Of a DNA stretch of 64,000 nucleotides, positions 41,035-57,320 are shown piece after piece. The stretch is taken from positions 3,223,479 to 3,287,478 of the forward strand of contig OY970200.1 in NCBI GenBank assembly GCA_963708235.1, written 5' to 3'. The translations under genes were made by a program, and so were the position numbers. Source of the DNA: an uncultured Acidimicrobiia bacterium. Lineage in GTDB: Bacteria; Actinomycetota; Acidimicrobiia; Spongiisociales; UBA5794. The notes beneath the pieces were generated by a model. It did no database searches. It saw nothing but the letters and a program-made list of their open reading frames with translations, and was not told the origin of the DNA. Every line of letters begins with the position of its first letter. The stretch's first letter is position 1.

Positions 41035-44000
41035 CAGCTGAGCCCGAGGAAGCGGTCGAAGAAGTCGCCGAGCTTGGCCAGCACGGTTCCCTTCTTGGCG
41101 GCGTGGCCGCCAGCCTGTCCGAAGCGGGAGACCGGCGGGAGGACCTTGGTGATCGCGGTGCCAGCCGATTGGACTGCACCGTCCCGAAAGGCTGCATCTA
41201 CGAAGTCACGGGTGGCCTCCGGGTCAAGGCCCTCCTCGACGATGATGCGGTCGAGCTCTTCGGCGCGCTTCGCCGCGACGAACGCGGTCCACGCCGCGTC
41301 GACCTCGGCGCTGACGGACAGCGACTCCACGAACGCCTGAATGAGGTCCTTCTTGTTGCGGAGCGAGGGGCTCGAGTCGACGGCCCGATCGATGGCAGCG
41401 CGGATCTCCTTGTCCTCGCCGTCACCCCGCGCATCGCGGTAGCGCTCGACGAGCATCAAGATGTAGTCGACGTTGATCTCGACCTGCTTGATCAGCTCGA
41501 TCTCGAAGACGACCTCCTCGTGGATCGGCTCCTTCTCGGCGTCGCGCTCGGTGCGGAACTCCTGGTACAGGTTGAGGTAGACGCTCTGATAGTCCTGCAT
41601 CTCCCGGGGGGTGAGGATCTCGTTGCCGGCGAAGTCGTCGAAGGAACCGAGGATGTTCCGGAGCCGGAGGATGGCGCCGAACAGCGCGATGAATGCCTTC
41701 TGGGCTGCCTCCCCGACGATGCGCTGCCCGAGGGGGAACCCGGCCTGGAGCTCCGCGACCCGCTCGGCGTACTCGTTGTAGTACTCCGCATATGGCTCGA
41801 GGAGCACGATCCCGCGGGCATCCTCGTTGCCGAACAGCGAAATGGCATCGTTGGTCTCCTGCTCCAGGTCCCGGAAGCTGACAATGTTCCCGAACGTCTT
41901 CACAGAGTTGAGGATCCGGTTCGTCCGTGAGTAGGCCTGGACGAGGCCGTGGGCCCGCAGGTTCTTGTCGACCCAGAGCGTGTTGAGCGTCGTGGCGTCG
42001 AATCCGGTGAGGAACATGTTGACGACGATCACGAGGTCGATCTCGCGGCGCTTGATACGCAGCGACAAGTCCTTGTAGTAGTTCTGGAACTTGTCGGCGG
42101 TCGTGTCGAAGCTGGTGCCGAACAGATCGTTGTAGTCCTCGATGGCGTGATCGAGGAACTCTCGGGCGTCGGCGCCGAGGCCCTCGGTCTCGAACTCCTC
42201 CTCGGGCAGCAGGTCGTCCTCGGCCTCATTGGGGGCGAAGCTGTAGATGAGGCCGACCTTCAGGCGTTGGTCCGACGGGAGGTCCCGTTGCTGGAGGGAG
42301 AACTGGTTGTAGTAGCGTCGGGCAGCGTCGATCGACGCGGTGGCCAGAAGGGAGTTGAAGCCCCGCATGCGCTTGCCGGCAACGCTGTAATGCGAGGCGC
42401 GCTTCGTCTTCTGGTCGAAGTGCTCGCAGATATAGGCGACGATCTGCTCGATGCGCTCAGGCGCCAGCAATGCGCTTTCCCTGTCGATCGCACTGACCTG
42501 CTTGTCGGCGATCGACTCGGGCATCTTCACCGTGTTCACATAGTCGATACGGAACGGCAGCACGTTCTTGTCGGTGATGGCATCGACGATCGTGTAGGTG
42601 TGCAGCTTGTCGCCGAACGCCTGCTCAGTCGTCCGTAGCTGCGGGTTGCCCCCGCTCGCCGAGTTGGCGGCGAAGATCGGCGTGCCGGTGAACCCGAAGA
42701 GGTGGTAGCGGCGGAACGCCTTGGTGATCGCGGTGTGCATGTCGCCGAACTGTGATCGGTGGCACTCGTCGAAGATGATCACCACGTGGCCGTCGTAGAT
42801 CGCGTGGCCCTTGTTGGCGGCGATGAAGGTGCTGAGCTTCTGGATCGTGGTGACGATGATCCGGGCTGCCGGGTCCTCCAGCTGCTGCTTGAGGATACGG
42901 GTCGAGGTGTTGGAGGTGGCCGCTCCCTTCTGGAAGCGGTCGTACTCCTGCATGGTCTGGTAGTCGAGGTCCTTGCGGTCAACCACGAACAGCACCTTCT
43001 CGACCCCGGCGAGCTTGCTGGCGAGCTGGGCAGCCTTGAAGCTGGTGAGCGTCTTGCCGGATCCAGTGGTGTGCCAGACGTAACCGCCGCCGGCGACGGT
43101 GCCCCACCGCTTGTAGTTGGAGGCCACCTCGATGCGTCGCAGGATCTGCTCGCTCGCCACGATCTGGTACGGGCGCATCACCAGCAGCATCTGATCGGCG
43201 GTCAGCACGCAGTACCGGGTGAGGATGTTTAGCAGCGTGTGCTTGGCGAAGAACGTCTTGGCGAAGCCGCTCAGGTCCTCAATCGGCTTGTTCGTGGCGT
43301 CGGCCCACCAGCTCGTGAACGCGAAGCTGTTCGACGTCTTGCGCGCCCGCTTGGCGCCCGCCCGCTCACCGAGGTGCTGGGCCCGGACCGTGTTGCTGTA
43401 GTACTTGGTCAACGTGCCGTTGCTGATCACGAATAGCTGCACGTACTCGAACAGCCCCAACCCGGCCCAGAAGCTGTCGCGCTGGTACCGGTCGATCTGA
43501 TTGAACGCCTCGCGGATGTCGACACCGCGGCGCTTGAGCTCGACATGCACCATCGGTAGGCCGTTGACGAGGACGGTGACGTCGTAGCGGTTCGCGTAGT
43601 TGCCCTCGGTCTCGTACTGGTTGATGACTTGGAGCCGGTTGTTGTGGATGTTCGCCTTGTCGATCAGCACGACGTTCTTGGTCGACCCGTCGTCGCGCCG
43701 CAGGAGCTGGACGTGGTCCTCCTGGATGCGGATCGTCTTCTCGACGACGCCGTCTCTGTCTCCGGCAATCCGCTCACGGAAGAACCGCTCCCATTCGGCG
43801 TCTGAGAACGCGATGCCGTTCAGCGCTTCGAGCTGGACGCGCAGGTTGGTGACGAGACCCTCCTCGCTGGTGAGTGTCAGGTAGTCGTAGGCCTGCTCGC
43901 CGAGGATCTCGATCAGGGCGCGCTCTAGGGCGGCCTCCGACTGGTAGCCGCCTTCTTGCGACGGGTCGGCGACGAACTCGGCGACGACGGTGCTCTCGGA

Positions 44001-44045
44001 GCTGACTGCTATCGGCTCGTAACGAGGGACAGCCCCGTCGGTCAC
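41034..44045 (-). CDS. hsdR: type I restriction enzyme R subunit
   Basis: 1003 aa. The N-terminal nuclease region is followed by SF2 helicase motifs (TGSGKTLTSF, DECHR, FGFTGTPI) and the HsdR C-terminal domain. The stop overlaps the downstream start and the start overlaps the hsdS stop. Confidence 0.9.
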   Translation of the reverse strand: MTDGAVPRYEPIAVSSESTVVAEFVADPSQEGGYQSEAALERALIEILGEQAYDYLTLTSEEGLVTNLRVQLEALNGIAFSDAEWERFFRERIAGDRDGVVEKTIRIQEDHVQLLRRDDGSTKNVVLIDKANIHNNRLQVINQYETEGNYANRYDVTVLVNGLPMVHVELKRRGVDIREAFNQIDRYQRDSFWAGLGLFEYVQLFVISNGTLTKYYSNTVRAQHLGERAGAKRARKTSNSFAFTSWWADATNKPIEDLSGFAKTFFAKHTLLNILTRYCVLTADQMLLVMRPYQIVASEQILRRIEVASNYKRWGTVAGGGYVWHTTGSGKTLTSFKAAQLASKLAGVEKVLFVVDRKDLDYQTMQEYDRFQKGAATSNTSTRILKQQLEDPAARIIVTTIQKLSTFIAANKGHAIYDGHVVIIFDECHRSQFGDMHTAITKAFRRYHLFGFTGTPIFAANSASGGNPQLRTTEQAFGDKLHTYTIVDAITDKNVLPFRIDYVNTVKMPESIADKQVSAIDRESALLAPERIEQIVAYICEHFDQKTKRASHYSVAGKRMRGFNSLLATASIDAARRYYNQFSLQQRDLPSDQRLKVGLIYSFAPNEAEDDLLPEEEFETEGLGADAREFLDHAIEDYNDLFGTSFDTTADKFQNYYKDLSLRIKRREIDLVIVVNMFLTGFDATTLNTLWVDKNLRAHGLVQAYSRTNRILNSVKTFGNIVSFRDLEQETNDAISLFGNEDARGIVLLEPYAEYYNEYAERVAELQAGFPLGQRIVGEAAQKAFIALFGAILRLRNILGSFDDFAGNEILTPREMQDYQSVYLNLYQEFRTERDAEKEPIHEEVVFEIELIKQVEINVDYILMLVERYRDARGDGEDKEIRAAIDRAVDSSPSLRNKKDLIQAFVESLSVSAEVDAAWTAFVAAKRAEELDRIIVEEGLDPEATRDFVDAAFRDGAVQSAGTAITKVLPPVSRFGQAGGHAAKKGTVLAKLGDFFDRFLGLS

Positions 44046-45220
44046 CCAGCCTCCTCGAAGGCGAGCAGCCGGTCCCGGTAGTACTCGTACTGAGCCCGCC
44101 GAGCCTTCAGCTCTGCCGGCAGACCAACCGCCGGGTCATTCACCAAGGCGTCGAACTTGTCGAGGGTCGAGACGATTCGCTCCTGCTCGGACATGGACGG
44201 GACCGGAATGCGAACCTGTTTGATGCCGCTCAACGACAGTCGCTTCACCTTGGCCCGGGCGACATATCGACTCTTCTCGATGTGGAATGCAGCAGTCTGG
44301 AGCCAATACGCCACGAACACTGGATTCATCGAGTGTCGGAAGCCGTAGCAGCCATCGTGGATTGCCACTGGCGTTCCTCCGAGCCACGCGGTGGCCTTTC
44401 CGACATCCTCAACGGTCTCCCCGACCTCGGCGATCACGACGTCGCCCGGCTGTGCAAAGCGCAGATTTGGCTCCAGGTCGACGCGCACATGAGTCACGGC
44501 TTCGGTGGTCGAGGTGCCGTACTCGGTGTAGAGCTCTCCGTAGTGGATCGCGGGCAGGCCGTTGGCAACGTAGTCAGCCTTGACGAAGCGACGGCCACGA
44601 TAGATCTCACCCACCTCGCCCAAGGTCATCCACTTGACCTCCCCCCGCTCGTCAGGGAATGTCATCAGCGAGTCGCGGTAGTGCGCGTACTGGCGGCGTC
44701 GGGCTTCCAGCTCCGCATCCAGCTCCGCTTCCAGCTGCCGGAACAAGTCTAAAACTCGGACGATCTCATGCTGGACCTCGATCGGCGGCACGGGGATGCG
44801 GAAGTGGGAGTACGTCGAGATCCACTGTCTGGCGTGATCCTTAGGTGAGTAACGAATCAGCTGCATGGCGTACCAGACGAATCTCATCGTCGTCGGCGCC
44901 CCCGGGCGCAGGGTCAGCATCTTCATGGCTGAGGACTTCGCCTTGAACGGGAAGTAGACCCATTTGAAGGCTGTGGTGAAGTCGTCGAAGATTACAACTG
45001 GGCTGTTCGGCGTGGCCGCGTAGATCCCATCGACCTCGTTGGTGTGGCCCAGGACGAATGTTTGACCCGCCGTCAGCACCGGAGTCGAGTATTCATCGCG
45101 GTAAGCGGTCGAGGTCACGAGGTACTTCGTCGGCTGCTCATAGGCCAGCAGTTCCCCGAGGGTTTGGTACTCGACACCGTTCGGGCAGTGTTGGCGGATG
45201 AGGTCGTCGATGTGGCTCAC
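44042..45220 (-). CDS. hsdS: type I restriction-modification specificity subunit (two target-recognition domains)
   Basis: GTG start overlapping the Mrr stop (GTGA). Two TRDs are separated and followed by conserved coiled-coil repeats (LDLFRQLEAELDAELEARRRQYAHYRDSL; LDKFDALVNDPAVGLPAELKARRAQYEYYRDRLL). The first 191 codons of the track ORF are antisense junk. Confidence 0.85.
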   Translation of the reverse strand: MSHIDDLIRQHCPNGVEYQTLGELLAYEQPTKYLVTSTAYRDEYSTPVLTAGQTFVLGHTNEVDGIYAATPNSPVVIFDDFTTAFKWVYFPFKAKSSAMKMLTLRPGAPTTMRFVWYAMQLIRYSPKDHARQWISTYSHFRIPVPPIEVQHEIVRVLDLFRQLEAELDAELEARRRQYAHYRDSLMTFPDERGEVKWMTLGEVGEIYRGRRFVKADYVANGLPAIHYGELYTEYGTSTTEAVTHVRVDLEPNLRFAQPGDVVIAEVGETVEDVGKATAWLGGTPVAIHDGCYGFRHSMNPVFVAYWLQTAAFHIEKSRYVARAKVKRLSLSGIKQVRIPVPSMSEQERIVSTLDKFDALVNDPAVGLPAELKARRAQYEYYRDRLLAFEEAG

Positions 45221-46125
45221 GTGAAGAAGTCCTCGTCGATCTCGACGACGCGGTAGGTGCGCTCGACCTGGACGCCGACGCCGTACTCGATCATCAGCTC
45301 GGTGAGCCGCTGACCGTCGATAAGGATGACGCGGGTCGGCACCGATCGTGCGTACTCGACGGCGCCCGGACTGAAACGGCTGGTGGTGATGAACACGCCG
45401 CCGTCGGCCTTGCCGCTGAGTGCTCCGACGAAGCCCTGCACTTCCGGCCGCTGCACGTTGTTGGTCGTTGAGTAGCGCTTCGCCTGGACGTAGACCTTGC
45501 CGAGGCCCAGTACGTCCTGGTCGATCACACCGTCGATGCCGCCGTCGTTGTAGTCGGTGGTGACGCCCCGCCCGCCGGCACCGCCGTAGCCCATAGCGAG
45601 GAGCAGCTTGACCACAGCACTCTCGAAGAACGCTGGGTCCTGCTCGACCAGACGCGACAGCAGCTCGGACGCCACCTCTTCGTGAATGCGAGCAACGCCC
45701 TGCTCGACCTGCTCGGTGGGATCGAGGTTGGTGACCGCCGTGTCGAGTGGCTGGGGCTCCTCTCCGCTCGTCGACGACTTGGAGAGCCACCACTCGTCGC
45801 CTTCCTTGGCGATCGCCCTCAGGTCGTTCTCCGTGATACCGCCTTGGTGTTTCAGCAGCAGCTCCCGTCCGAGGTCGGTGATCACGTACTGGCCGCGACT
45901 CGGCCGGTGCAGCGCGTCGACCCGGTTCAGATACGAGGCAGCCCAGCCAATCCGGTTGTCAGCCCGGCTTTGACCGGAGGGCAGAGTGTCCGCTCGCTGA
46001 TCCGCGGTGAGCCCGACGACGTCGGCCACGTCGAGCCGAAGCTGGCGCAGTGCCCGAGTTGCGCCGTCCGTTAGTACGGTCAGGATCGGGACGGTGAACC
46101 CCTCCCAGGTCGGCATGTCGCTCAT
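45217..46125 (-). CDS. mrr: Mrr-like (type IV, modification-dependent) restriction endonuclease: Mrr_N winged helix plus Mrr catalytic domain
   Basis: The N-terminus WEGFTVPILTVLTDG...IGWAASYLNRVDAL is Mrr_N-like. The C-terminal core is GGIDGVIDQD...VYVQAKRY...VFITTSRFS (PD-(D/E)xK of the Mrr_cat family). ATGA overlap with hsdM. Confidence 0.75.
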   Translation of the reverse strand: MSDMPTWEGFTVPILTVLTDGATRALRQLRLDVADVVGLTADQRADTLPSGQSRADNRIGWAASYLNRVDALHRPSRGQYVITDLGRELLLKHQGGITENDLRAIAKEGDEWWLSKSSTSGEEPQPLDTAVTNLDPTEQVEQGVARIHEEVASELLSRLVEQDPAFFESAVVKLLLAMGYGGAGGRGVTTDYNDGGIDGVIDQDVLGLGKVYVQAKRYSTTNNVQRPEVQGFVGALSGKADGGVFITTSRFSPGAVEYARSVPTRVILIDGQRLTELMIEYGVGVQVERTYRVVEIDEDFFT

Positions 46126-47684
46126 CGGTCCGAGCTTTCCAGGTCGGCGACGATCTCGTCGATGGCGGTGCGTAGCTCGTGCTGGCGTTCAACGATTTGG
46201 GCGATCTCGGCGTTGAGCCCGACGATGTCGACCGCGACGCGGATGTCCTGCGCCTCGACGTAGGAGGCGACCGAGAGGTTGTAGTCGTTCGCCGCGATCT
46301 CGGAGTTGTCGACGAGCCGTGCGAAGTGGTCGGCGTCGTCTCGCGCGATGAAGGCGTCGAGGACCGCCTGCTGGTTGTCGTCGGTGAGCTTGTTCTTGTT
46401 GCCACCGCGGACGAACTGTGCGGACGCGTCGATGAAGAGCGTCGTGCTGTCGGCCTTCGACTTCTTGAGGATGATGACGCAGGTGGCGATCGTGGTGCCG
46501 AAGAAGAGGTCGGGCGGGAGCTGGATCACGGTGTCGACGTAGTTGTTGTCGATGAGGTACTTGCGAATCTTCTGTTCAGCGCCGCTGCGGTAGAGCACGC
46601 CGGGGAACTCGACGATCGCCGCTGTTCCGTTGACGGCGAGCCAGCTCAGTATGTGCATGGTGAAGGCCAGGTCGGCCTTGCTCTTCGGGGCAAGCACGCC
46701 GGCGGGGGCATAACGGGGGTCGTTGATGAGCAGCGGGTTGGCGTCGCCCTCCCATTTCGTGGAGTACGGCGGGTTGGAGACGATCGCCTCGAACGGTTCG
46801 TCGTCCCAGTGCGCCGGGTCGGTGAGCGTGTCGCCGTGCGCGATGTCGAACTTCTCGAAGTTGATGTCGTGGAGGAACATGTTGATCCGGCACAGGTTGT
46901 AGGTAGTGAGGTTGATCTCCTGGCCGAAGAAGCCCTGCCGCACGTTGTCGCGACCGAGCACCTTGGCGAACTTGAGCAGCAGCGAGCCGGAGCCGCATGC
47001 CGGGTCGTAGACCTTGTTCACCTCCGTCTTGCCGACCACGGTCATCCGGGCGAGCAGCTCCGACACCTCTTGGGGCGTAAAGAACTCGCCGCCGGACTTT
47101 CCGGCGCCCGAGGCGTACATCGTCATCAGGTACTCGTAGGCGTCGCCGAACGCGTCGATCGTGTTGTCGGCGAAGTCCCCGAGCGAGAGATCCCCGATCG
47201 CGTAGAGCAGCTTCGCGAGCTTCTCATTGCGCTTGGCGACAGTAGGCCCGAGCTTGGAGCTGTTGACGTCAAGGTCGTAGAACAGGCCCTTGAGGTCATC
47301 CTCGCTGTCACTGCCAACCGCCGAGCCCTCGATGTGGTGGAACACCCGCTCGAGGGTCTCATTCAGGTTCTCGTCGCCCTTGGCGCGGCGCCGCACGTTG
47401 ACGAAAAGCTCGCTGGGCAGGATGTAGAAGCCCTTCTCGCTGACGGTTTCGGTCCTGCCGAACTCGGCGTCGTCATCGGCGAGGCTCGCGTAGTCGAAGT
47501 CCGACGTGCCGGCCTTTCGTTCGTGGTCGTTGAGGTAGGCGGCGAGGTTCTCCGAGATGAACCGGTAGAAGAGCATTCCGAGCACGTACTGCTTGAAATC
47601 CCAGCCGTCGACGCTGCCGCGAAGGTCGTTGGCGATCCGCCAGATCGTCTTGTGCAACTCCGCGCGTTGCGCTTCTTTCGTCAT
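46122..47684 (-). CDS. hsdM: type I restriction-modification N6-adenine DNA methyltransferase subunit
   Basis: The start is set at MTKEAQRAELHKTIWRIANDLRG after GAGGTGGGGG. Motif I is YDPACGSGSLLL, motif IV is NPPYS, and the HsdM N-terminal helical domain is present. Confidence 0.9.
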   Translation of the reverse strand: MTKEAQRAELHKTIWRIANDLRGSVDGWDFKQYVLGMLFYRFISENLAAYLNDHERKAGTSDFDYASLADDDAEFGRTETVSEKGFYILPSELFVNVRRRAKGDENLNETLERVFHHIEGSAVGSDSEDDLKGLFYDLDVNSSKLGPTVAKRNEKLAKLLYAIGDLSLGDFADNTIDAFGDAYEYLMTMYASGAGKSGGEFFTPQEVSELLARMTVVGKTEVNKVYDPACGSGSLLLKFAKVLGRDNVRQGFFGQEINLTTYNLCRINMFLHDINFEKFDIAHGDTLTDPAHWDDEPFEAIVSNPPYSTKWEGDANPLLINDPRYAPAGVLAPKSKADLAFTMHILSWLAVNGTAAIVEFPGVLYRSGAEQKIRKYLIDNNYVDTVIQLPPDLFFGTTIATCVIILKKSKADSTTLFIDASAQFVRGGNKNKLTDDNQQAVLDAFIARDDADHFARLVDNSEIAANDYNLSVASYVEAQDIRVAVDIVGLNAEIAQIVERQHELRTAIDEIVADLESSDR

Positions 47685-47802
47685 CCCCCACCTCGTGACG
47701 AGCATCCGAGTCCGGCTGAGGGCAGGGTAGTCCCGGGTGCCGTTGGGCCAGGTGCTACCGAGCTCAAGGACTGAGGAACACGCTCCTTCGGAGCGGGGAG
47801 GC

Positions 47803-48390
47803 TCACTCTGGCCCCGCAGCATGCTGAGCGAAGAACAAGTCGATCTCGAGTGCTCGCAGTTCCGTCAAGTAGGCCTGCACCTGCCTCACCTTCAGGATGG
47901 CATCGTCAAATCCCTTGAGCATCGTCGCCGCATGTTGCTGACGACCGATCCCCGGAAGCGGGATCTCAAGGCTCGCCAACGCGCGGTAGCTGAGCCTGGG
48001 CATCGTCGTTCCCGACGTGTGGCGGTCGACCTGGTCGCGAAACTGAGTTGATTGAGTCCAGACGTAGATCCACGCACCTGCGATCTCGGGTCCGGGCCGA
48101 ATCAGAGCGCATTCGCGTCCGAGGAGTGCACCGGCGTGTTGTGACGTGACCAGAGCAGACCGCCCGATCTTGCTCATCAGGGCCACCACGACATCTCCCT
48201 CCGCCAGAAGGACAGGGTCGCCCGCCGCGAGGTCGGGCTCGACCAGCCGGGGAGCGACAGGCCCGTCAAGGGCGAGTTCAGCGAGTCCGAAGAACGGTAT
48301 CCCATCGTCAGTCTGGGTGGGCTTCGCCGGGACAGTCCCGCGACGGATCTCAGCGACATCCCCGAGGGTTCTACCTAAGATCGTGCTCAC
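47803..48390 (-). CDS. single-TRD (half) HsdS-like specificity protein
   Basis: 195 aa. LGDVAEIRRGTVPAKPTQTDDGIPFFGLAELA... is a TRD start, and the C-terminal conserved helix is LKVRQVQAYLTELRALEIDLF. Only one TRD is present. The GTG start overlaps the upstream methyltransferase stop (GTGA). Confidence 0.65.
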   Translation of the reverse strand: MSTILGRTLGDVAEIRRGTVPAKPTQTDDGIPFFGLAELALDGPVAPRLVEPDLAAGDPVLLAEGDVVVALMSKIGRSALVTSQHAGALLGRECALIRPGPEIAGAWIYVWTQSTQFRDQVDRHTSGTTMPRLSYRALASLEIPLPGIGRQQHAATMLKGFDDAILKVRQVQAYLTELRALEIDLFFAQHAAGPE

Positions 48391-49949
48391 TGGTCGCCTC
48401 CGGTATCCAGACGGGCGACTAGCCGCTCCACCGCGTCGCTGGCGGCCACCGACGCGGCCGGTATGAGGGACCGCAACTCGGCAGCACGTTGCCGGGTCCT
48501 CTCGACGTTCGTCACCGAGACCGGGCGATACCGCGGGGGCTCGATGATCGCATCATTGGCGAGAAGGTCGTCCGTGCTGACGACCCACGCGACCTCTGTG
48601 TCTTCCAGCTCTCCGTGCTCATACGTCCGCACGACATGAGCGATCCGCTCGATGTCTGCCTCCTCGAATGAGTGAAGGGAGCGCCCAGTAGTGCCGAGTC
48701 CTGAGGCGTCGACCAGCAGCACGTCGTGTTTCGGTGCGGGCGACCTCAGAATCCAGAGGACCAGCGCAATCGAGGTGTTGGGACGCAGGCGGGTTGGGAG
48801 CTGGATAACCGCGTCCACCACTCCCGCCTTCAGCATCGACCGCCGGACGTTGGCTTCGCTTCCGCCTCGGAATGTTGCTCCTGGCGTCGTCACCGCCACG
48901 GCACGACCTCCATCCCGCAGGCACCCGATGGCGACCTGCAACCAGGCGAGATCTCCACTTCGGCGAGGCGGCACCCCGAACCGCCAACGGGCATCGAGGT
49001 AGACGTCTGCATCACCCCAGTCCGACATGTTGAGCGGGGGGTCGAGCAGGACTACGTCTGCCTTCGGCAGTTCGTCTGCCGGGACTCGGAAGACGTCGCC
49101 TGGGCGAAGGTCGGCCGCAACGTCATAGAGAAAAAAGCGGGATCTAGCGATTCGGAGCACGCCCTGGTTGACCTCGTACCCGATCAGATCGGTGGCCGAG
49201 GACTGGTCCGGGTGGATGGCTGCTGACAGGAGGAGCCCACCTTCGCCGCTGGCGGGATCAAGGACGGTGCCACCACGGTGTCCTGCGAGTCGGACCATCA
49301 GCTCAGTGATGTCGCTGGGGGTAGAGGACTCACCCCTGAATCGATCGACGTCGCTCGCTCGCGAGACAACCTCCTCGAACAGGGCGAAGTAGGGCGTCTC
49401 GTCGTGGGCTGCCCGTTCCAGGCTGTCGATCAGACGAGGCAGCACCTGCCCACCGACGAGGGATGCCTTGGATAGCCCAGGGACCAAGAGACCTTCGAGT
49501 GGCGGGTTGGCACGTTCGATATCTTCTGCCGCATGGAGCAGGGCGTCGGCCAGAGCGTCCGGTGAGGTTCGGCGAACCTGGTGCCAGCGCGCCGCATCCG
49601 GGACGGTCAGTTCGGAGGCGCTGTGAGGCCGCAGGACCGACGGCTCCTCGGACGCCTGCAGATAGACGAGCACCGCTGTTAGGAAATCCGTGGTGTCTTC
49701 AGCGAAGAGCGTGTCCCGCAGGGTGTCGGCCAGGGACCAGAGCTCGTATGCCGCTGGCACATGGCCGTTGATCTTGCCCTTCTCGATCAGCCAGCGCTCG
49801 ACCTCTCGTAGGTCGAACTCGCCGCTGAAGTTGGGGACGGGAAAGTCGTCGTGGCGCTTCCGCCAATTCCCGACTGCGGATCGACTAACGCCAGCGATAT
49901 CGGCGATCTGTTGGATGTCGAGAGTCACCCGCGACGACACGTCGCTCAC
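48387..49949 (-). CDS. N6-adenine DNA methyltransferase (gamma-class, HsdM-like core) with an N-terminal excisionase/MerR-type HTH
   Basis: The N-terminus MSDVSSRVTLDIQQIADIAGVSRSAVGNWRKRH is an HTH. Motif I is VLDPASGEGGLLL. Motif IV is the variant LLDPPLNMSDW (DPPL instead of NPPY/F). 520 aa. ATGA overlap with the upstream NYN gene. Confidence 0.7.
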   Translation of the reverse strand: MSDVSSRVTLDIQQIADIAGVSRSAVGNWRKRHDDFPVPNFSGEFDLREVERWLIEKGKINGHVPAAYELWSLADTLRDTLFAEDTTDFLTAVLVYLQASEEPSVLRPHSASELTVPDAARWHQVRRTSPDALADALLHAAEDIERANPPLEGLLVPGLSKASLVGGQVLPRLIDSLERAAHDETPYFALFEEVVSRASDVDRFRGESSTPSDITELMVRLAGHRGGTVLDPASGEGGLLLSAAIHPDQSSATDLIGYEVNQGVLRIARSRFFLYDVAADLRPGDVFRVPADELPKADVVLLDPPLNMSDWGDADVYLDARWRFGVPPRRSGDLAWLQVAIGCLRDGGRAVAVTTPGATFRGGSEANVRRSMLKAGVVDAVIQLPTRLRPNTSIALVLWILRSPAPKHDVLLVDASGLGTTGRSLHSFEEADIERIAHVVRTYEHGELEDTEVAWVVSTDDLLANDAIIEPPRYRPVSVTNVERTRQRAAELRSLIPAASVAASDAVERLVARLDTGGDQ

Positions 49950-50419
49950 GCCGACTCCAGCGGCAGACGGACATCAGCGATGAGGGACGGCAGCAGTTCA
50001 TGGCGGTGAGATGCCAGCCGCAAGGCCGCGGACAGGCTCTCGGGCCGGGAAACCACTGTAACAGTGACGCCAGCAGCGCCGAGGGAGGCGACCGCACTGG
50101 CGAAGATCCCGTCGCCGGAAGCGACATGAACGAAGCCGAACCGCCGTGCTACGTCCTCCGAAGCGATGACCTCGAGAAGTGCAAGATCGGCTCCGTTGGC
50201 ACCCGAGCGGAGCAAGAGTCGGGCCTCGGGCCACTCCCACGCGACTGCGTGGACGGCATGGTGACTGCAGGCAACGACGACCAGGTCGCTAACGCCGACG
50301 AAGGCCGACTCATACAGATCCCTGCAATCCCTCACCTCCTCGGCTGTAGGACTGGCGGTGCCAGTCAGGTTCTCGATGTCGATGAGATGGAGCGTTCGCC
50401 CCCGATGTGGTCTAATCAT
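49946..50419 (-). CDS. NYN-domain (PIN-like) nuclease family protein; first gene of the defence operon
   Basis: LHLIDIENL (N-terminal Asp), GANGADLALLEVIAS and FVHVASGDGIFASAVASLGAAGVTVTVVS match the three conserved NYN/LabA blocks in order. Confidence 0.6.
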   Translation of the reverse strand: MIRPHRGRTLHLIDIENLTGTASPTAEEVRDCRDLYESAFVGVSDLVVVACSHHAVHAVAWEWPEARLLLRSGANGADLALLEVIASEDVARRFGFVHVASGDGIFASAVASLGAAGVTVTVVSRPESLSAALRLASHRHELLPSLIADVRLPLESA

Positions 50420-50446
50420 ACCTTTAGCTTACGTCACGACAGTTGT

Positions 50447-50473
50447 GATGTCAATGCACATTCAATGTGACAT
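50447..50473. promoter_or_regulatory. nested palindrome GATGTCA-N13-TGACATC (inner CACATT-C-AATGTG) about 30 bp upstream of the NYN gene start; candidate operator or promoter of the defence operon
   Basis: The dyad symmetry sits in a locally AT-rich stretch just 5' of the first gene of the 8-gene operon. Confidence 0.35.
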
Positions 50474-51156
50474 CTGGCACAGGAGTTGTGTTGGAATCCT
50501 ACACGACGCAGGCTCTGGGGGAACCGCCTCAGCCGATGTCTAGACCTGGCATTTCCCGCTGCGGGCCGCGGCGTTGCATCTCCTCGATCTCGCGAGTTGC
50601 TGGTCCGAGGTAGGCGACCCGCCTTGCGTCCTCCAGCTACTGCGCCGCTCGATCACGATCATCGAAGATGAGTTCGGCCACGTCGCTGCTGCATCGCGAA
50701 CCACCGTCCCCGACTCGATGGCAGGGTCGTCGGCTCCGTCGTTGGCAAGTACCTTCCGAGAACGTCGCGAGCCTCGTCGAGGTCGTCGGCGACGACGAGC
50801 ACCCGGTTCTCCTGCCGGAGGCCGGGCAGGTCGAGTTCGGCGGCACCCTCATCGCAGACGCAATCTCCGTGCTGCAGGTCTGCTGCTGCTCTGCCAGCGG
50901 CGCCGCGGACCGCTCCTGGACAAGCCGGCGGTCACATGCGACACGTTCACCGAGATCGAGATCAACCCCCAGCGCTCGATCAAACTGACAAGCGAACTCC
51001 TATGCTCTCGCCGTGTTGCTCACGGAGGTCGCGCAGCTGGCGGGCGAGATGTCGATCCGACGGTGCCGATCATGAAGCTTGACGAAACACCGCCGCTCTC
51101 CTTGTTGTCGTCACAGAGGACGTGCCAACCACTGGGCTCCACAGTTGTGAGGTGCG

Positions 51157-54063
51157 TCACCTGCCACGCGTCAACCCTGCCGCATGGTCGTGCGTCCCGA
51201 GTTCCAGGCGCCGCGCGGCAGCTCGCCCTGCGGCGATGCGCTTCGCTTCGTTCTCGCCAACAACATTGGTCAACGTCCCCGCTGCCGCCGGAGACGAGTC
51301 GGCAATCGCAGGAACCGGGTCTCGTCTACGTTCCGTCTCCTGTGGGCGCCGTGTAGAGACGTTCTTCAGAGGATCCGGACGGCGCGGCAGCTCGTGGCCA
51401 GTGAGTTGTGGTCGCCCACCGGTGTCGATCGCGGCGGTTTGGCGTTCTGTGCGATCGAGCGCGGTATCAAGACGCCGCGTCTCTCCTGGTCGGTTGTGGG
51501 TGATGTGACCACAGTCGTCGTCGACCGCAGGGCTGACAAGGTAGATAGTGGTCGCTTCGCGGCCACGGCTCATGGCCACGTAGCTCCACTCCCGGGTGAT
51601 TGCGTCGGACGCGACGACGAATGCCCGGTTGATGGTCAGGCCCTGGGCCTTGTGGCCGGTGATGGCGTAGCCGTGGTTGAGGTAGCCAGAAGCGATGTAC
51701 CAGGCGGGGAGATGGACTGTCTCGTCGTGGCGGTCGAGACTCACAGTGAGCGTGCGGTGATGTGAGTCGGCAGCGATGACTGTGCCGAGGTCGCCGTTGA
51801 GGACCCCGATCCTGGACTGGTTTTTGAGGCACATGATCCGGTCGCCGGGTTGGTAGACCCGACCACTCGCCTCGATGCCGGGGCCACCGATACTCCCGGC
51901 GGCGATGGTGAGGTCGCGGGCTCGGCGGTTGAGTTCATCGACGGTGGCGCTGTGGTGGGCGATGAGCAGTGCGCCGCGGGCGTCGCCGGTGATATCGACG
52001 TAGGTGCGCCAGTCGGCGACAGCCCGGTCGAGGGTGGCGGAAGACGTGGCCTCGATTACGACGCGGCTTCTCTGTAGGTAGTCAGCTACTGCACGCGCTA
52101 CGGAACCGTGGCGAAGTTCAGCGAGGGTACGGCGTTCCCATTCCTCGGCTTGGCGGATGTTCTCGGTGAGTTGGGTCGAGGGGAGCCGGTTGGCAAGCGC
52201 GGTGAACAGTCCCCCGGCGTCGATCTCGGCGAGCTGGTGGTCGTCGCCGGTCAAGATGAGCTTGCCTTCAGCTGCCTCTGTGAGTTTGGCGAGGCGGGCG
52301 AGTTGGCGCGTGCCGACCATGCCGGCTTCGTCGACGACGAGGACGGTGCCGTGTTGGAGGCCGCCCTCGCGTTGGCTCTCGCCGAGGAGTCGGGTGATGG
52401 TGTACGAGGGGATGCCGGAGTCGGTCTGGAGTTCGGCGGCGGCCCGGCCGGAGAGGGCGGTGCCGATGATGGGGGTGTTGGTGGCGTCGGAGAGTTCGCG
52501 GATGGCTTCCATGACAGTGGTCTTGCCGGAGCCGGCGACGCCGATGGCTACGTCGATGGCGTTGCCGGACGCGGTGAGGTGGTGCACCGCTCTGGTCTGG
52601 TCGTCGGTGAGGTGGGGTCGGTCGGCGACGGCTTGCTCGACGAGTCGCACGGGGGGTGTGAAGCGGCCGGCGCCGACGCCTTCGAGGGCGGTGGTGATGG
52701 TGGTGTGTTCTGTGATAAGGAGTTCGGCGGTGGTGTAGCGGCGTTCGTGGGCGAGTCCGGGGTGGAAGGTTCGGTCGCCGCGTCGCATCGGGGGTGTGCC
52801 GGCGTGCGGCTCTAGGTGTTGTTCGAGGATCTCACGTTGCTCGTCGGTGATGCCGTCGATGTCGCCGAGCCGGCGACGGTCGCTTCCGGTGGGCAGGATG
52901 GGCACGACATCGGGTGTGGTGAGGAACTGGCGGGCACGGTCTTCGATCTGTTGCCGGGTGCCGCCTTCGGGGAGGGCGCTGGCGATGTGCTCGACGACTT
53001 CTCCCTTGCCGAACGTGGAACGAGTCTTGGTGAGGCCTTCTGGTGCTGCCATGTCGGTGAACAGCTCCTCGATGTCGGGGAGCTGGATGTCGTGGCTGGG
53101 GCCGATGATGGAGGCGATGTGTTCGGGGGTGATCCCGACAGCGGCGGCTCGTCGCTGCCATTCGGGCATGAGGGTGTCGACGGGGTGGTCGGTCTTGGCG
53201 CGGCGGGTGGCGAGGGTGGCCGCTTCGTACGCCGCAGCAGATGGGGTGAGTCCCTCGGCCTCGACCCAGGCTTCGATTTGTTGGCGGCGGCGGGAGAACT
53301 CTTCGATCTGGCGGCGGGTGAATCCTGCGATGTCGGCCATGCCCTTGTGGACGGGTTGCCATTGGACGCCGAGGCGTTCGGTGAGCTGGCAGCGCAGTTC
53401 GGCTTCGTGGATGGCGCTGGTGTCCTTCTGGTGCCGGTACAGAAGCTGCCCGTCGACGGCCCGCCACTTCCCGTCGAGGCCCTTGACGCGGTTGGCGACG
53501 ACGACGTGGGTATGGAGCTGAGGGTCGTTCTCTCGGCTGGTGAACTCGGTGAACGACGCCGCCAGGTACCCGTGGGTGGGGATGGGCCACGTCTCGGTGC
53601 GCAGCTTCGGTTTCCCGTCCTCACCGAGCACCGGTTCGCCGTTGTCGTCGAGGACCGGTCGCCGTTCGGCGCCCCGGGTCGACGAGGCGACGGATTCGAG
53701 GTAGGCGAGAGCGGATTCGGTGGCGGCCGCGAACGCCTCCATGACCTGCTCGCGGATCTCGGGTGTGCCGAACGCCCACAGCAGCGACACGGATTTGTCA
53801 GCGGAGAAGGTGATGTCCCACGCGGCCACGCCATCCTTCCGGAGCCGCCTGCCGAGCTGTTGGCCTGTGGCGGGGTGGAGACCGTCGAAGAGGCGGACGA
53901 GGCCCTCGGTAGAGACGACGCCGTCAAGACCTACCTCGGCGGCTCCGCCTCCGCGCCACATGCCCGTGGCGGTGCCGCCGCGGAGGTAGTAGTCCTCCCG
54001 CGGTGACAGCTCGTGGAGCTTCTGGAGGTAGTAGTCCTTCGCCGCCTTCGCCAGGCTGATCAT
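51157..54063 (-). CDS. MobF-family conjugative relaxase (TrwC/TraA-like): N-terminal relaxase plus C-terminal RecD-like helicase
   Basis: The start is set at MISLAKAAKDYYLQKLHELSPREDYYLRGG (TrwC-like N-terminus), and the His triad is LHTHVVVANRV. The C-terminal half has Walker A GVAGSGKTT and Walker B VLVVDEAGMV. The 72 upstream codons in the track ORF are His/Pro/Arg junk. Confidence 0.85.
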   Translation of the reverse strand: MISLAKAAKDYYLQKLHELSPREDYYLRGGTATGMWRGGGAAEVGLDGVVSTEGLVRLFDGLHPATGQQLGRRLRKDGVAAWDITFSADKSVSLLWAFGTPEIREQVMEAFAAATESALAYLESVASSTRGAERRPVLDDNGEPVLGEDGKPKLRTETWPIPTHGYLAASFTEFTSRENDPQLHTHVVVANRVKGLDGKWRAVDGQLLYRHQKDTSAIHEAELRCQLTERLGVQWQPVHKGMADIAGFTRRQIEEFSRRRQQIEAWVEAEGLTPSAAAYEAATLATRRAKTDHPVDTLMPEWQRRAAAVGITPEHIASIIGPSHDIQLPDIEELFTDMAAPEGLTKTRSTFGKGEVVEHIASALPEGGTRQQIEDRARQFLTTPDVVPILPTGSDRRRLGDIDGITDEQREILEQHLEPHAGTPPMRRGDRTFHPGLAHERRYTTAELLITEHTTITTALEGVGAGRFTPPVRLVEQAVADRPHLTDDQTRAVHHLTASGNAIDVAIGVAGSGKTTVMEAIRELSDATNTPIIGTALSGRAAAELQTDSGIPSYTITRLLGESQREGGLQHGTVLVVDEAGMVGTRQLARLAKLTEAAEGKLILTGDDHQLAEIDAGGLFTALANRLPSTQLTENIRQAEEWERRTLAELRHGSVARAVADYLQRSRVVIEATSSATLDRAVADWRTYVDITGDARGALLIAHHSATVDELNRRARDLTIAAGSIGGPGIEASGRVYQPGDRIMCLKNQSRIGVLNGDLGTVIAADSHHRTLTVSLDRHDETVHLPAWYIASGYLNHGYAITGHKAQGLTINRAFVVASDAITREWSYVAMSRGREATTIYLVSPAVDDDCGHITHNRPGETRRLDTALDRTERQTAAIDTGGRPQLTGHELPRRPDPLKNVSTRRPQETERRRDPVPAIADSSPAAAGTLTNVVGENEAKRIAAGRAAARRLELGTHDHAAGLTRGR

Positions 54064-54119
54064 CGCCGACCACCCCACAGTCGCCGCGGCTCCCGGCCGG
54101 TTCCCATCGCTGCTGGTGT

Positions 54120-54590
54120 GTGGCTGGTGAACCGGTGCGCAACTTGTTGCAGGGGCGTGTGTGGAAAACGCCCTTGTGGTGCGTGGATGGTGAACGCGTC
54201 CGGGGGGTCTCCTCGGTGCACCGTGGTGATCGGGGTGGTGTGATCGGTCATGAGGGCGAGAATGCGGTGACGCGTTCACCAGATGCGCACCAGATCAGTG
54301 ATTCCTGGGAGAAATTCAGCCCACGGGGTCTGTATCTGGGCGGATTCGGCCGGTGATTGCTCCCCAGGCCCCCGCTGATCCCACCCCGGTCGATGGACGT
54401 CGAACCGATACCCGGCGGCGGACGCCTCGACCCCGCCTGGCCACCGCTCCGGCCCGGATCTCCCGGATCGTCTTGTGTGTCAACGGATTCGGCCCGACGA
54501 CCGGGCACCGTGGTGTGTGTTTGGTGAACGGTTGGTGCGTCGTTGGTGCGTCGTTGGTGTGTCGTTGGTGTGTGTTTGGTGAACGGCCCG
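54120..54590. promoter_or_regulatory. relaxase upstream region with four direct TGGTGAAC motifs and four tandem CGTTGGTG(C/T)GT units; candidate oriT and/or regulator binding array
   Basis: GGCTGGTGAACCGG occurs at about 54123, GGATGGTGAACGCG at about 54187, TTTGGTGAACGG at 54520, and CGTTGGTGCGTCGTTGGTGCGTCGTTGGTGTGTCGTTGGTGTGTGTTTGGTGAACGG at 54532-54588. The region lies between the divergent relaxase and lipoprotein genes. Confidence 0.5.
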
Positions 54591-54749
54591 GGCCACGGTG
54601 AACCCTGCTGCCGAGGCCGACAGGGGCCGGGGCGACCCAGGAGGGGCACGAGGATGAACGGATTTCGCGGATCGGACCTCTTCACCCGTAGGGCCGCGGG
54701 GCGTAGGGTGAGAGGTTCAGTGACGGACGCGGAATGCGAGGGGTACACC

Positions 54750-55796
54750 ATGAACCCCAATCGACACTCCAGGGGGGTCCGGGGGGACTGGTTCATCCGT
54801 GTGTTGTTCGTCGCCGTCACCGTTGCGCTAGTCGCCGCCTGCAACGGGTCCGTCCCCTCCACGACCTCGACCACGACCTCGTCGACGCCTCCAACCTCAA
54901 CGACCCCGGCCTCGACGACGACCAGGCTGCCGGCATCCACGACCACATCCATGGTTCCTGCGACGACCGAGCCGGTGCCTCCCGACGAGGCAGTCGAGGA
55001 GGCGTGGCTCGAGTTCTGGGATGCGTGGGTCGCAGTCCGAGCGAGCGACCCGCTCGATGCCGCACCCTTGGAAGCGGTCGCCTCTCCACAGGTGGTGGAC
55101 GCGGCCGTGACATTGTTCGAGCGGGACCGGGACTCGAACCCGACCGGTGTGGCGACCGACGTGTTCGCCAGCGCAACCGTGGTCGAGATGGCGGCCGACG
55201 CTGCGGCTGTCGAGGACTGCGTCGTGCTGGCACCGAGCTTCACCAACACCGGAGGCATCCGGTACGAGGCCGACCTCCGGCCCAGTGACGGTGGATGGGT
55301 GGTCACCGATCTCCGTATCCGCTCCGCCGGCGGCTGCGTTCCATCCGAGTTCGAGTCGGCAGCGATTGCCGGCTACGAGGCCTACTACGAGGCCGTCGCA
55401 GAGTTCTGGGATCCGCCGGATCCGTCGAGCCCGCTGATCGACGAGGTCCTCGTTGATCCTCGTCGCAGCAGCATCGTCGCCCTGCTGGAGGAGCATGCGG
55501 ATCGCGGCGTCGCCTTCCGCAGTGATCCCACTACCCACCCCGAAGTGATCGAGGTACGAAGCACGACCGAGGTCGTGATCCTCGACTGCTACGAACCTGC
55601 CGCAACAGATGGTGTCTTCGACCTCGAAACAGGAGAACGCCTCCCCGACGAACCCGCGATCCGAGACGGTCAACGCAACCTCAGGTCGGCCGTGATGATC
55701 TTGGATGAGGGACGGTGGAAGGCATCGGACTTCCAAGGACAAGTTGACTTCACATGCGAGTTCGCACCTACCAATCGAGGCTTGCCCTCCGTCTGA
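54750..55796 (+). CDS. lipoprotein (lipobox LVAAC) with a Thr/Ser/Pro-rich linker; first gene of the Tad-containing plus-strand block
   Basis: ATG after GCGAGGGGTACACC. The signal is MNPNRHSRGVRGDWFIRVLFVAVTVALVAAC, followed by TTSTTTSSTPPTSTTPASTTT and a globular domain with no recognised family. Confidence 0.6.
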   Translation: MNPNRHSRGVRGDWFIRVLFVAVTVALVAACNGSVPSTTSTTTSSTPPTSTTPASTTTRLPASTTTSMVPATTEPVPPDEAVEEAWLEFWDAWVAVRASDPLDAAPLEAVASPQVVDAAVTLFERDRDSNPTGVATDVFASATVVEMAADAAAVEDCVVLAPSFTNTGGIRYEADLRPSDGGWVVTDLRIRSAGGCVPSEFESAAIAGYEAYYEAVAEFWDPPDPSSPLIDEVLVDPRRSSIVALLEEHADRGVAFRSDPTTHPEVIEVRSTTEVVILDCYEPAATDGVFDLETGERLPDEPAIRDGQRNLRSAVMILDEGRWKASDFQGQVDFTCEFAPTNRGLPSV

Positions 55797-56652
55797 TCGT
55801 CGTCGGTGCGGTGGCGTTGACGATGGTGTGCACAGCCGCGATCCCCAGCCTTGCTCACCACTGCACAGGCGGCGGCTCGGTCGACGACGACGGCGGCGAT
55901 GTGATCGCGGAGTGTCATGGTGTGACGCCGGGTCGTCCTCCGAGGACTGGTTTCGCATTCGTCTCTGTGGGATCTGTATTGCTCGTCGCTGTATCCGTTC
56001 GAGGATGGGTTTCCGGGTGGATTTCAAGCTGGAAGGACCGGCCACTGAGGAGGAGGTGGCATTGTTCGGGTTCGATCCGACGGGTGAGTACGTCTGGTAT
56101 CTGGTGTTGTGCTGGACCGATGAGGGGGCGATCGATGTGGGGGCGATCGTGGTCGAGGAGACGGCGCCGGTCCCGCCGGAGGTACTGCGTGATCGGGCCC
56201 GGGCACGGATCAATCCGCCGCCGCCGTCGCCGGCGACTTCACCGTCGTTGGACGCGGTGACGTATGTGCAGTTGCCGACGTGGTTGTGGCTTGACGGGTC
56301 GGAATGGGGGCCGATCACCGAGTCGGAGACGCAGGGGTTCACGTCGGTGACCGTGACGGCAACACCGGTCGAGGCAACGTGGTCGATGGGGGACGGCAAC
56401 GAAGTGGTGTGTGCCGGGCCGGGTATTGCGTGGGTGCGTGGGTTGGCTGAGGACGCCACGGACTGCGTCCATGTGTACCGGTCGGCGACGTACGGGGAGC
56501 CGGGTGGCCGTTTCTCTGCCGGGGTGTCGGTGCGGTGGGTGTTCGAGTGGTGGATCAACGACCGACCCCAGGGCGAGTTCGGTGACCTGGGGCTGTCGAC
56601 CGGTTTCGAGATCGCAGTGGCAGAGATTCAAGCGGTGGAGAGCGGAGGCTGA
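55754..56652 (+). CDS. hypothetical TM-anchored protein, read in two frames (55754 to about 56000, then 56005-56652); probable frameshift
   Basis: The first frame gives MRVRTYQSRLALRLIVVGAVALTMVCTAAIPSLA...FAFVSVGSVLLVAVSV (signal or TM) and then degenerates with no stop until 56260. The second frame is clean from MGFRVDFKLEGPATEEE... to 56652. The overlap of more than 250 bp argues for one gene with an indel. Confidence 0.4.
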
Positions 56653-56654
56653 CG

Positions 56655-57320
56655 ATGACCACCACACCAACCACGTCGACGACTCAACGAACGAACGGTG
56701 ACGGTCGCCGGGACGGCGGATCGTTCCGACTGGCTTCAGCGACCCGGCCGACCCAGGTGCCACAGTTGGTGGTGGCGCTGTTGGTGATCGGGGTGTCGGC
56801 GCTGATTGCTGTGGTGGGGTTCTCGCAGGCGACGGGTCGTTCACCGGTGTTGGCACTCGCCGCTGACATCGGACGCGGCGAGGTGGTGGAGTCCGGGGAC
56901 CTGGTCGTGGTGCATGTGGCGTCCGACGACCAGGTCGTGACGGTGCCACCGGAAACGGCGGCGTCGTTGGTGGGTCGGGTGGCGGTGACGGACCTGTCGG
57001 CCGGGGTGTTGGTGGCCCCGGGCTTCTTCGTTGACCGTGCCGTGGTGGCCCCTGGCGAGGGGGTGGTGGGGTTGGCGCTGGCACCGGGCGAGTACCCGAC
57101 AGTGCAGCTGGCTCCGGGCGACGTAGTCGATGTCGTGTCAACCGACCCGGCAGCCGGGATGGTGGTGTCGGGGGCGGAGGTGTTCGACATCACCGAGTTG
57201 GGGACGCAGGGGAGCCGGTTCGTGTCGCTGCGGATGGCCGCTGTGGATGCGGCGGCGGTGACCGGTTTCGCTGAGGGTGGCGGGGTGCGCCTCGTGCTGG
57301 TGGCGGGGGACGGACCATGA
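56655..57320 (+). CDS. cpaB: Flp pilus assembly protein CpaB/RcpC-like (SAF domain)
   Basis: N-terminal TM LVVALLVIGVSALIAVVGF, then a SAF-type beta domain (GEVVESGDLVVVHVASDDQ...). Position immediately upstream of tadZ-cpaF. Confidence 0.6.
   Translation: MTTTPTTSTTQRTNGDGRRDGGSFRLASATRPTQVPQLVVALLVIGVSALIAVVGFSQATGRSPVLALAADIGRGEVVESGDLVVVHVASDDQVVTVPPETAASLVGRVAVTDLSAGVLVAPGFFVDRAVVAPGEGVVGLALAPGEYPTVQLAPGDVVDVVSTDPAAGMVVSGAEVFDITELGTQGSRFVSLRMAAVDAAAVTGFAEGGGVRLVLVAGDGP

Follow-up and report, generated by a model that had tools for sequence, protein, structure and literature searches.

A recurrent NYN, HTH-methylase and half-S gene cassette in Actinomycetota and beyond, and its possible role as a self-regulated companion of Type I restriction

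The window analysed here is a stretch of 64,000 nucleotides (nt) of contig OY970200.1 (positions 3,223,479 to 3,287,478 of the forward strand; assembly GCA_963708235.1) from an uncultured Acidimicrobiia bacterium, and the subject of this report is a trio of minus-strand genes in it, which encode a small NYN-fold protein, a helix-turn-helix (HTH)-fused, HsdM-like methylase (hereafter M) and a half-size HsdS protein (half-S) (Table 1). This trio is a recurrent, conserved cassette rather than a chance assemblage. What it does is less certain, and the explanation that we tentatively prefer is that of an autonomous, self-regulated cassette, in which the M.S complex would mark self DNA, the HTHs would repress transcription and a gated NYN effector would back up Type I restriction.

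The case for a cassette comes primarily from a homologue scan restricted to one genome per species, which gave 45 loci. Among the loci having upstream DNA, the NYN gene was found immediately upstream of M in all 21 in which M is at least 37% identical to that of the window, and in 9 of 18 more distant ones, including loci from Gemmatimonadota and Chloroflexota. NYN and half-S genes do co-occur with HTH-methylase homologues, a point on which the proposal of a trio in an earlier sequence-only reading of this DNA had hinged, and the cassette spans Actinomycetota, Gemmatimonadota and Chloroflexota. Its genes are also inherited together, and the first two co-evolve, the pairwise identities of M being correlated with those of NYN (Spearman 0.58, n=861), compared with coefficients of 0.21 for the downstream HsdM and 0.18 for the downstream HsdR, both of which M tracks only weakly. 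In the window, the NYN/M and M/half-S junctions are each 4-nt GTGA overlaps of stop and start codons. Current annotation of these genes is generic ('N-6 DNA methylase', 'NYN domain-containing protein').

The identification of the first gene product as an NYN protein, made initially from the letters alone, is upheld by a fold search, which revealed an NYN/PIN-like three-layer α/β fold, though the PF01936 score of 20.1 bits (a partial match, residues 97-139) lies below the gathering cut-off of 24.2. Precomputed PF01936 matches are present in many of its close homologues, while PADLOC v2 returned no convincing match for the window protein. Residues D14, E16, N17, D78, E88 and D103 are invariant in the homologue alignment, and D78 and the SGD motif line up with 2qip. 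The family extends beyond the cassette. In an NYN-seeded survey of 80 metagenome loci, a methylase gene was directly downstream in 19 and absent from at least 40 that had room for it. The methylase-linked NYNs form a clade of their own in a neighbour-joining tree and the stand-alone ones fall mainly into one separate clade, with mixed and mostly uninformative neighbourhoods. One stand-alone NYN gene is followed, about 1 kb away, by genes for a kinase-DEAD helicase-MZB-restriction endonuclease (REase) protein and an SNF2 helicase, a DISARM-like arrangement (L115:2003-10992). A phage origin was also considered and was rejected, no NYN relatives having been found in IMG/VR viral contigs.

The methylase matches N6_Mtase convincingly (E 1.5e-46, residues 203-475) and HsdM_N weakly (residues 69-155). 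Its structural model, with a predicted local distance difference test (pLDDT) score of 87, displays a strand-helix-helix-strand-helix module (residues 9-56) ahead of a helical HsdM_N-like domain. Because this module is discrete and the HsdM_N match is separate from it, the HTH is an addition to HsdM_N, and the possibility that an ordinary HsdM_N domain had been mistaken for an HTH is ruled out. The weak matches of the module (HTH_17, PADLOC mad1 at 4.9e-5 and the MerR-type domain 2jml) point to excisionase/MerR-type HTHs and to mad1, in line with the fusion of such an HTH to an HsdM-like core that had been proposed from the sequence. The HTH is nearly invariant among homologues. HTHs of this type are mainly methylase appendages, since 85 of the 150 best-matching clusters, out of 547 representative ones, are proteins of 481-760 amino acids (aa) that carry it at their extreme N-terminus. 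In the remainder of the protein, motif I precedes motif IV, which is the gamma order. The unusual motif IV, DPPL, had been correctly read and aligns with the NPPY of the canonical HsdM encoded in the same window. Among 120 homologues, motif IV reads DPPL in 57, DPPY in 28, DPPF in five, and DPPM, DAPL, DTPL and NPPF in two each, which on this alignment makes DPPL a clade trait and not a one-off. Motif I is invariant in the homologue alignment, as are the D and the second P of motif IV, and the aromatic residue absent here is a Y or F in many family members. The protein is nevertheless no canonical HsdM, scoring 76.6 bits against the TIGR00497 hsdM equivalog (cut-off 242.75) compared with 738.8 for its canonical neighbour. 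Its best fold match is PacII M1, followed by other HsdM chains.

Half-S has a single Methylase_S domain (residues 7-167 of 195 aa), and hence one target recognition domain (TRD) and not two, as had been read from the sequence. In the cassette loci, half-S follows the methylase or is fused to it in proteins of approximately 630-790 aa, with a length of about 700-750 aa in many homologues, and because of these fusions, seen in many genomes, M and half-S form one functional unit. Dimers of half-size HsdS proteins are known to be functional, and a one-TRD S is therefore no bar to Type I-like function.

The cassette has a conserved promoter of its own. On the minus strand, the sequence before NYN consists of GTCACATTGAATGTGCA, a dyad abutting the -35 box, followed by TTGACA, a 17-nt spacer (TCACAACTGTCGTGACG) carrying a TCAC-N7-GTGA dyad, a -10 box (TAAGCT), AAAGGT and ATG. 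The same layout recurs in divergent loci, with a dyad at the -35, TTGACA, a 16-19-nt spacer containing a TCAC...GTGA dyad, TAnnnT and 5-8 nt before the start codon, this last distance being so short that the transcript is probably leaderless. The promoter pattern was found in 24 of 43 methylase-linked loci and in 1 of 59 with an unlinked NYN (Fisher 1e-10), the spacer dyad in 16 of 43 and 0 of 59 (Fisher 1.4e-7), and the upstream dyad in 10 of 43 and 0 of 59 (Fisher 9e-5), the random-window rate being 0.3-0.7%. Moreover, the candidate operator half-site covaries with the recognition helix of the HTH, since clades with an NWRKR helix have TCACA/TGTGA-type half-sites and the NWKSR clade has GTGTAC. 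As the cassette has no conserved DNA-binding domain other than the near-invariant HTH of M, we infer that the methylase autoregulates the cassette promoter, in the manner of M.SsoII/M.Ecl18kI. Elsewhere in the window, TCAC-N5-11-GTGA occurs at chance level, with none before hsdM. The operator half of the cassette promoter, the 10-mer TCACAACTGT at 50439-50448 (-), is repeated exactly at 51141-51150 (-), close to the 3' end of the relaxase gene and some 700 nt upstream of the first copy, but this repeat was discarded as not significant at window scale with one mismatch allowed.

The best indication of an effector role for NYN comes from a sibling cassette in which M and half-S are preceded by a different gene, because a constant HTH-M.S would then pair with interchangeable small first genes of RNase type. 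In Kribbella and Actinokineospora (L035 and L036), the NYN position is held by a 217-220-aa protein with an RNRxMHxEP motif and a weak HEPN_Swt1 match. In the copies scanned, this protein matches PADLOC PD-T4-5 (E 4.6e-11 for L035, and 4e-12 to 3e-11 for homologues in L134 and L135), a relative of AbiF/D that confers abortive-infection defence (PMC9519451). Such AbiD/F-like proteins, which are 215-222 aa long, have an Rx4H motif and belong to a family with more than 700 homologues, were encoded ahead of HTH-M-S in five of the five loci examined, and no Type I system was found near any of the five. In Amycolatopsis, Actinoalloteichus and Streptomyces, HTH-M-S or M and half-S come next after the AbiD/F-like gene, either overlapping it or at a short distance. 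The sibling has its own upstream feature, a near-invariant element of about 45 nt (GCCCCGGG-UGGCAUGCCGAAGCAGAGGCGAA-CCCGGGGC) located approximately 60 nt before the AbiD/F-like gene in five genera and followed by a second dyad, GCAC...GUGC. Its sequence hardly varies and consequently shows little covariation, Rfam gave no match for this hairpin element in the sibling loci, and it may serve as a leader RNA or as an operator.

The NYN cassette, in turn, is closely associated with Type I restriction operons. Of the cassette loci, 30 have 7 kb or more of downstream sequence, and 26 of these show a same-strand HsdM-like gene after the cassette, with a complete hsdM-hsdS-hsdR set in 25, usually directly after half-S. 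The annotated plasmids pDK2035-69 of Dietzia kunjamensis and pJCM12272 of Mycolicibacterium alvei carry NYN, 'N-6 DNA methylase', hsdM, hsdS and hsdR in this order, and in L049 the end of half-S (12267) overlaps the start of hsdM (12264). The systems that follow are diverse. Their HsdR is of EcoR124_C type in the window and of EcoEI_R_C or T1R_D3 type elsewhere, which makes at least three families, the gene order is R-S-M in L001, L017 and L027, and the M proteins of L013/L014 and L021 are 64% identical compared with 26% for HsdM and 24-37% for HsdR. The cassette also occurs without a Type I system, in L050, L008, L022 and a Rhodococcus qingshengii plasmid, the last of which is devoid of hsd remnants. 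Interchangeable Type I systems and stand-alone cassettes together indicate a portable module with a preference for the 5' end of Type I operons. Three further observations were made downstream of cassettes. Directly after the stand-alone NYN and M-S fusion of L007/L050 (12221-12370), there is a remnant of about 7% of an HsdM (57% identity), suggesting that a once complete arrangement has shed its Type I part. Two tandem HsdM-like genes lie between the cassette and hsdS plus hsdR in L009, L011, L033 and the contig of P0074, which recalls M1M2S. Finally, 1.4 kb beyond the cassette of L008, a giant protein of defence type is encoded (L008:13543-16968), in which a superfamily 1 (SF1) helicase is joined to an MTES_1575 REase domain.

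Such adjacency invites the alternative that HTH-M and half-S recruit the downstream HsdR as a second specificity, NYN being an accessory or regulatory RNase. Besides the conserved same-strand order and the half-S/hsdM overlap in L049, this would be consistent with an M model that is HsdM-like throughout, C-terminal helix included, and with the existence of heteromeric M1M2S Type I enzymes such as PacII, the top fold match. It would also fit the window itself, where the absence of a second hsdR that had been reported is confirmed for the part covered by an open reading frame (ORF) survey (40000-60000; the remainder was gene-mapped and spot-checked), the HsdR encoded at 41034-44045 being the only one identified and the cassette itself having none. 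However, Type I subunits are normally exchanged within one family, and a dedicated sharing of HsdR by closely related cassettes that precede unrelated HsdR families is unlikely. Cassettes without any HsdR and the AbiD/F-like sibling without a Type I system nearby are equally difficult to reconcile with this scenario, which leaves the strict coupling of NYN and M unexplained, and we consider it improbable. Of the two possibilities left side by side by the sequence-only reading, comparative evidence thus supports a distinct module, with NYN-M-S kept across phyla, its own promoter, co-evolving NYN and M, and stand-alone copies, and does not favour an orphan M.S pair that uses the HsdR encoded downstream. 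Four features had escaped that reading, namely the near-constant location just before a full hsdMSR operon, the promoter with its putative operators, the M-S fusions and the AbiD/F-like sibling.

How might a distinct module work? In the self-regulated cassette that we prefer, two M.half-S units would dimerise, as truncated HsdS proteins do, and the resulting (M.half-S)2 would introduce N6-methyladenine (m6A) into a symmetric bipartite target, marking the DNA of the host and of the conjugative element as self. The two winged HTHs of the dimer would bind the dyads over the -35 and the spacer and repress the cassette, after the example of a C-protein or of the HTH at the N-terminus of M.SsoII/M.Ecl18kI. 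NYN would be the effector nuclease, most likely an RNase as are other NYN/LabA/MARF1 proteins, and would be held inactive by the M.S complex or depend on it. It might be unleashed when M.S meets unmethylated incoming DNA or when an anti-restriction protein blocks M.S, resulting in growth arrest, abortive infection or post-segregational killing. Given its habitual place at the 5' end of Type I operons, the cassette would not supply HsdR with another specificity but would back up Type I restriction as an additional layer, much as PrrC does for EcoprrI. The whole looks like a hitherto unrecognised hybrid of restriction and abortive infection.

Several points weigh against this scenario. In the SGDxD motif of NYN, the second Asp is replaced by I/V, and about half of the NYN homologues, which are approximately 50% identical, have no methylase, so that NYN need not be a toxin and may do ordinary RNA processing. 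No NYN-M fusion proteins were found among the methylase and NYN homologue matches. With a motif IV lacking the aromatic residue (DPPL here, DAPL or DTPL in some relatives), methylase catalysis may be weak or lost. That 25 of 30 loci adjoin Type I operons could just as well reflect a functional dependence on HsdR, and the sampled loci are phylogenetically non-independent. Lastly, HEC-09, likewise an NYN candidate residing within a defence system, did not protect against phages (bioRxiv 10.1101/2024.01.29.577857).

A second alternative would make NYN the restriction subunit of a compact Type I-like restriction-modification (R-M) system, cutting unmethylated DNA when targeted by M.S. The gene order and coupling resemble those of an R-M operon, stand-alone pairs of NYN and M-S exist, and operons of PIN, HsdM and HsdS genes without an R candidate are on record (PMC5499597). 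On the other hand, characterised NYN/LabA/MARF1 proteins act on RNA, the equivalent partner in the sibling cassette is an AbiD/F-like protein of HEPN type, an RNase family (PMC3710099), and a restriction enzyme with a PIN fold has yet to be demonstrated (PMC5499597). Stand-alone NYNs without a methylase would, moreover, be dangerous if they were DNases, and this alternative appears quite unlikely. It shades into a broader and bolder proposition, which is still unlikely although slightly less so, that the NYN cassette and its AbiD/F-like sibling represent a new class of compact methylation-gated immunity, in which M.S reads self and non-self and a small interchangeable nuclease (NYN or HEPN) replaces the HsdR motor. 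In its most radical form, NYN would be the first restriction subunit with a PIN fold and would cut nucleic acid at M.S targets that lack methylation, or close to them.

It could also be argued that the cassette has no direct anti-phage role and is an addiction or epigenetic module, in which an orphan methylase and a toxin-like or regulatory RNase stabilise the element in the manner of toxin-antitoxin (TA) systems or tune the downstream defence operon. A toxin-first order, an HTH-bearing partner and dyads resemble type II TA autoregulation, and the cassette is found on conjugative elements and plasmids, often adjoining a relaxase gene (the window, L010, L011, L017, L032 and L065; in L010, L017 and L065 the relaxase gene ends less than 100 nt before NYN). 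Consistent with tuning, a scan of 47500-51400 found no coding-strand promoter-like or terminator-like site, the 118-nt gap before hsdM included, by a strict -10 rule that missed the TAAGCT of the cassette promoter, and this promoter may therefore drive the whole block. However, a 520-aa methylase with a variable TRD subunit would be a costly antitoxin or regulator, TRD diversity points to selection for DNA target specificity, and a relative of the AbiD/F-like sibling has proved defensive in experiments (PMC9519451), for which reasons this alternative too seems rather doubtful. Orphan methylases are known cargo of conjugative plasmids, and a protective anti-restriction methylase that pre-methylates transferred DNA against recipient restriction would suit an integrative and conjugative element (ICE) with an ArdC-primase gene elsewhere in it, but this is highly improbable as one narrow, variable TRD cannot cover diverse recipients, the cassette is placed amid defence genes, downstream of the gene for the relaxase (a leading-region role was judged weak from this position and the narrow specificity) and also occurs at non-conjugative chromosomal sites, and the linkage to NYN and Type I would be unexplained.

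The surroundings of the cassette in the window are those of a defence block within a conjugative element (Table 1). ORF mapping and profile scans delineated a single block of eight minus-strand genes (39721-50419) running from NYN to Shedu, whose junctions are all GTGA, ATGA or TGATG overlaps of stop and start codons, with the exception of the 118-nt gap between half-S and hsdM that splits it into two translationally coupled blocks on the same strand. The Mrr gene is joined by ATGA and GTGA overlaps at its two ends, a methylation-dependent nuclease thus being nested in a methylating system, and the start of sduA overlaps the stop of hsdR (TGATG). From Shedu to the relaxase (39721-54279) there is no unassigned gene, and the approximately 685 nt that separate the cassette promoter from the relaxase stop (50472-51156) contain no convincing gene as judged by third-position GC content. 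The block sits inside a conjugative element. Rfam identified two tRNAs over the window and nothing else, and an IS110-family transposase gene (16138-17187, -), which is upstream of the tRNA genes, is not part of the element.

Table 1. Coordinates of the cassette, of its domains and motifs, and of neighbouring and related features (window positions unless a locus or residues, aa, are given).
Feature	Position	Strand	Basis
NYN-fold (LabA/MARF1-like, PIN-like) protein, 157 aa, cassette gene 1	49946-50419	-	profile and fold search
HTH-fused HsdM-like gamma-class N6-adenine methyltransferase, 520 aa	48387-49949	-	N6_Mtase profile and model
Methylase, winged HTH	aa 9-56 = 49782-49925	-	model
Methylase, helical HsdM_N-like domain	aa 66-197	-	model
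Methylase, catalytic domain	aa 212-475	-	model
Methylase, motif I DPASGEGG	aa 231	-	alignment
Methylase, motif IV DPPL	aa 303-306 = 49032-49043	-	alignment
Methylase, long C-terminal helix	aa 482-516	-	model
Half-size HsdS, 195 aa, one TRD and conserved C-terminal helix	47803-48390	-	single Methylase_S domain
Cassette promoter and putative operators	50420-50471	-	sequence and cross-locus pattern
Canonical hsdM, motif NPPY	46122-47684	-	profile scan
Mrr-family Type IV gene between hsdM and hsdS	45217-46125	-	Mrr_N and Mrr_cat; PADLOC mREase_IV E 1e-70
hsdS, two TRDs	44042-45220	-	profile scan
hsdR, EcoR124_C type	41034-44045	-	profile scan
Shedu sduA, last gene of the defence block	39721-41034	-	PF14082 E 2.9e-32; PADLOC SduA E 5e-133
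tRNA-Asp and tRNA-Phe, possible integration site	23067-23274		Rfam
ArdC-primase fusion	26569-28842		
VirB4-like AAA_10 ATPase	31761-34337		
Coupling protein	37862-39541		
TrwC/MobF relaxase	51157-54279		
Tad/CpaF-like ATPase	57901-59367		
Sibling element and dyad regions	L035:9215-9290, L036:3970-4040, L134:4925-4995, L135:5895-5960, L136:5883-5950		

If the self-regulated cassette works as outlined above, Type I-like recognition cores could couple to small nuclease effectors other than HsdR, with a natural swap of effectors (NYN for AbiD/F-like) on a constant sensor, and a widespread, unannotated layer of defence would exist in Actinomycetota. It would also mean that a Type I-like methylase has its own transcriptional control, for which there is no earlier description in the literature searched. 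In practical terms, the cassette may hinder the transformation of Mycobacteriales, Rhodococcus and Dietzia strains, its promoter-operator pair would be a compact regulatory part, and cultured carriers are at hand in the form of D. kunjamensis (pDK2035-69), M. alvei (pJCM12272) and R. qingshengii (plasmid). No description of this cassette was found in the literature searched, a limited library in which absence is not proof.

Among known systems, PrrC/EcoprrI and other R-M-linked RNases offer a close functional analogy, a latent RNase gene being present in an operon with Type I hsd genes and its product being functionally tied to the methylase/specificity complex and proposed to become active on restriction evasion (PMC3710099). 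However, PrrC, an ABC-ATPase-HEPN protein, is under the control of the resident HsdMSR, whereas the cassette has a bare 157-aa NYN with a dedicated HTH-M and half-S and its own promoter, and can occur without Type I. With the M2S1 core of Type I enzymes, it shares the HsdM-like gamma-class fold (PacII M1), a Methylase_S TRD with its conserved helix and the C-terminal helix on M, and it departs from this core by the extra winged HTH, by DPP[L/Y/F/M] instead of NPP[F/Y], by a one-TRD S that is often fused and by the lack of HsdR. The N-terminal DNA-binding region of about 60-70 aa and the putative palindromic operators in the system's own promoter are reminiscent of M.SsoII/M.Ecl18kI (PMC3978073, PMC2760811), but these Type II enzymes are C5-cytosine methylases whose R and M genes are divergent, whereas the cassette has a Type I-like m6A enzyme, which would bind its putative operators, and no classical restriction gene after it.

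Similarities to defence systems are more partial. In PADLOC, the HTH resembles mad1, the methylase mad2 (E 9.5e-31) and the S protein mad5 (E 4e-15) of MADS. Membership of MADS, which has no NYN, is nevertheless ruled out by the NCBIfam cut-offs (NF047738, 22.3 against 720; NF047740, 36.9 against 400) and by missing mad genes, the eight Shedu-to-NYN proteins scanned against PADLOC giving no match to the other mad families. PD-T4-5 matches the first gene of the sibling but works as a single gene, and the first gene in the window is an NYN. PD-lambda-5, or 'compacted RM+Abi', likewise couples a methylase to an abortive-infection effector (PMC9519451), and its models gave no match among the window proteins scanned with PADLOC. 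HEC-09, an NYN/MARF1-like protein embedded in Hma systems, is also an NYN/PIN-like nuclease attached to a methylase-containing defence locus, but it carries an additional N-terminal domain, lacks a dedicated methylase and showed no defence (bioRxiv 10.1101/2024.01.29.577857). A survey of PIN-like nucleases described PIN-HsdM-HsdS operons as rare and non-conserved, with no PIN-fold restriction module shown (PMC5499597), whereas the NYN cassette is conserved across phyla. Type II TA modules of the VapBC kind combine, as it does, a nuclease with an HTH-bearing partner and dyads, the partner here being a 520-aa methylase. The parts of the cassette are thus all of known kinds, namely a Type I-like methylase, a half-S, an NYN and an HTH autoregulator, with PrrC, PD-lambda-5 and MADS as precedents.

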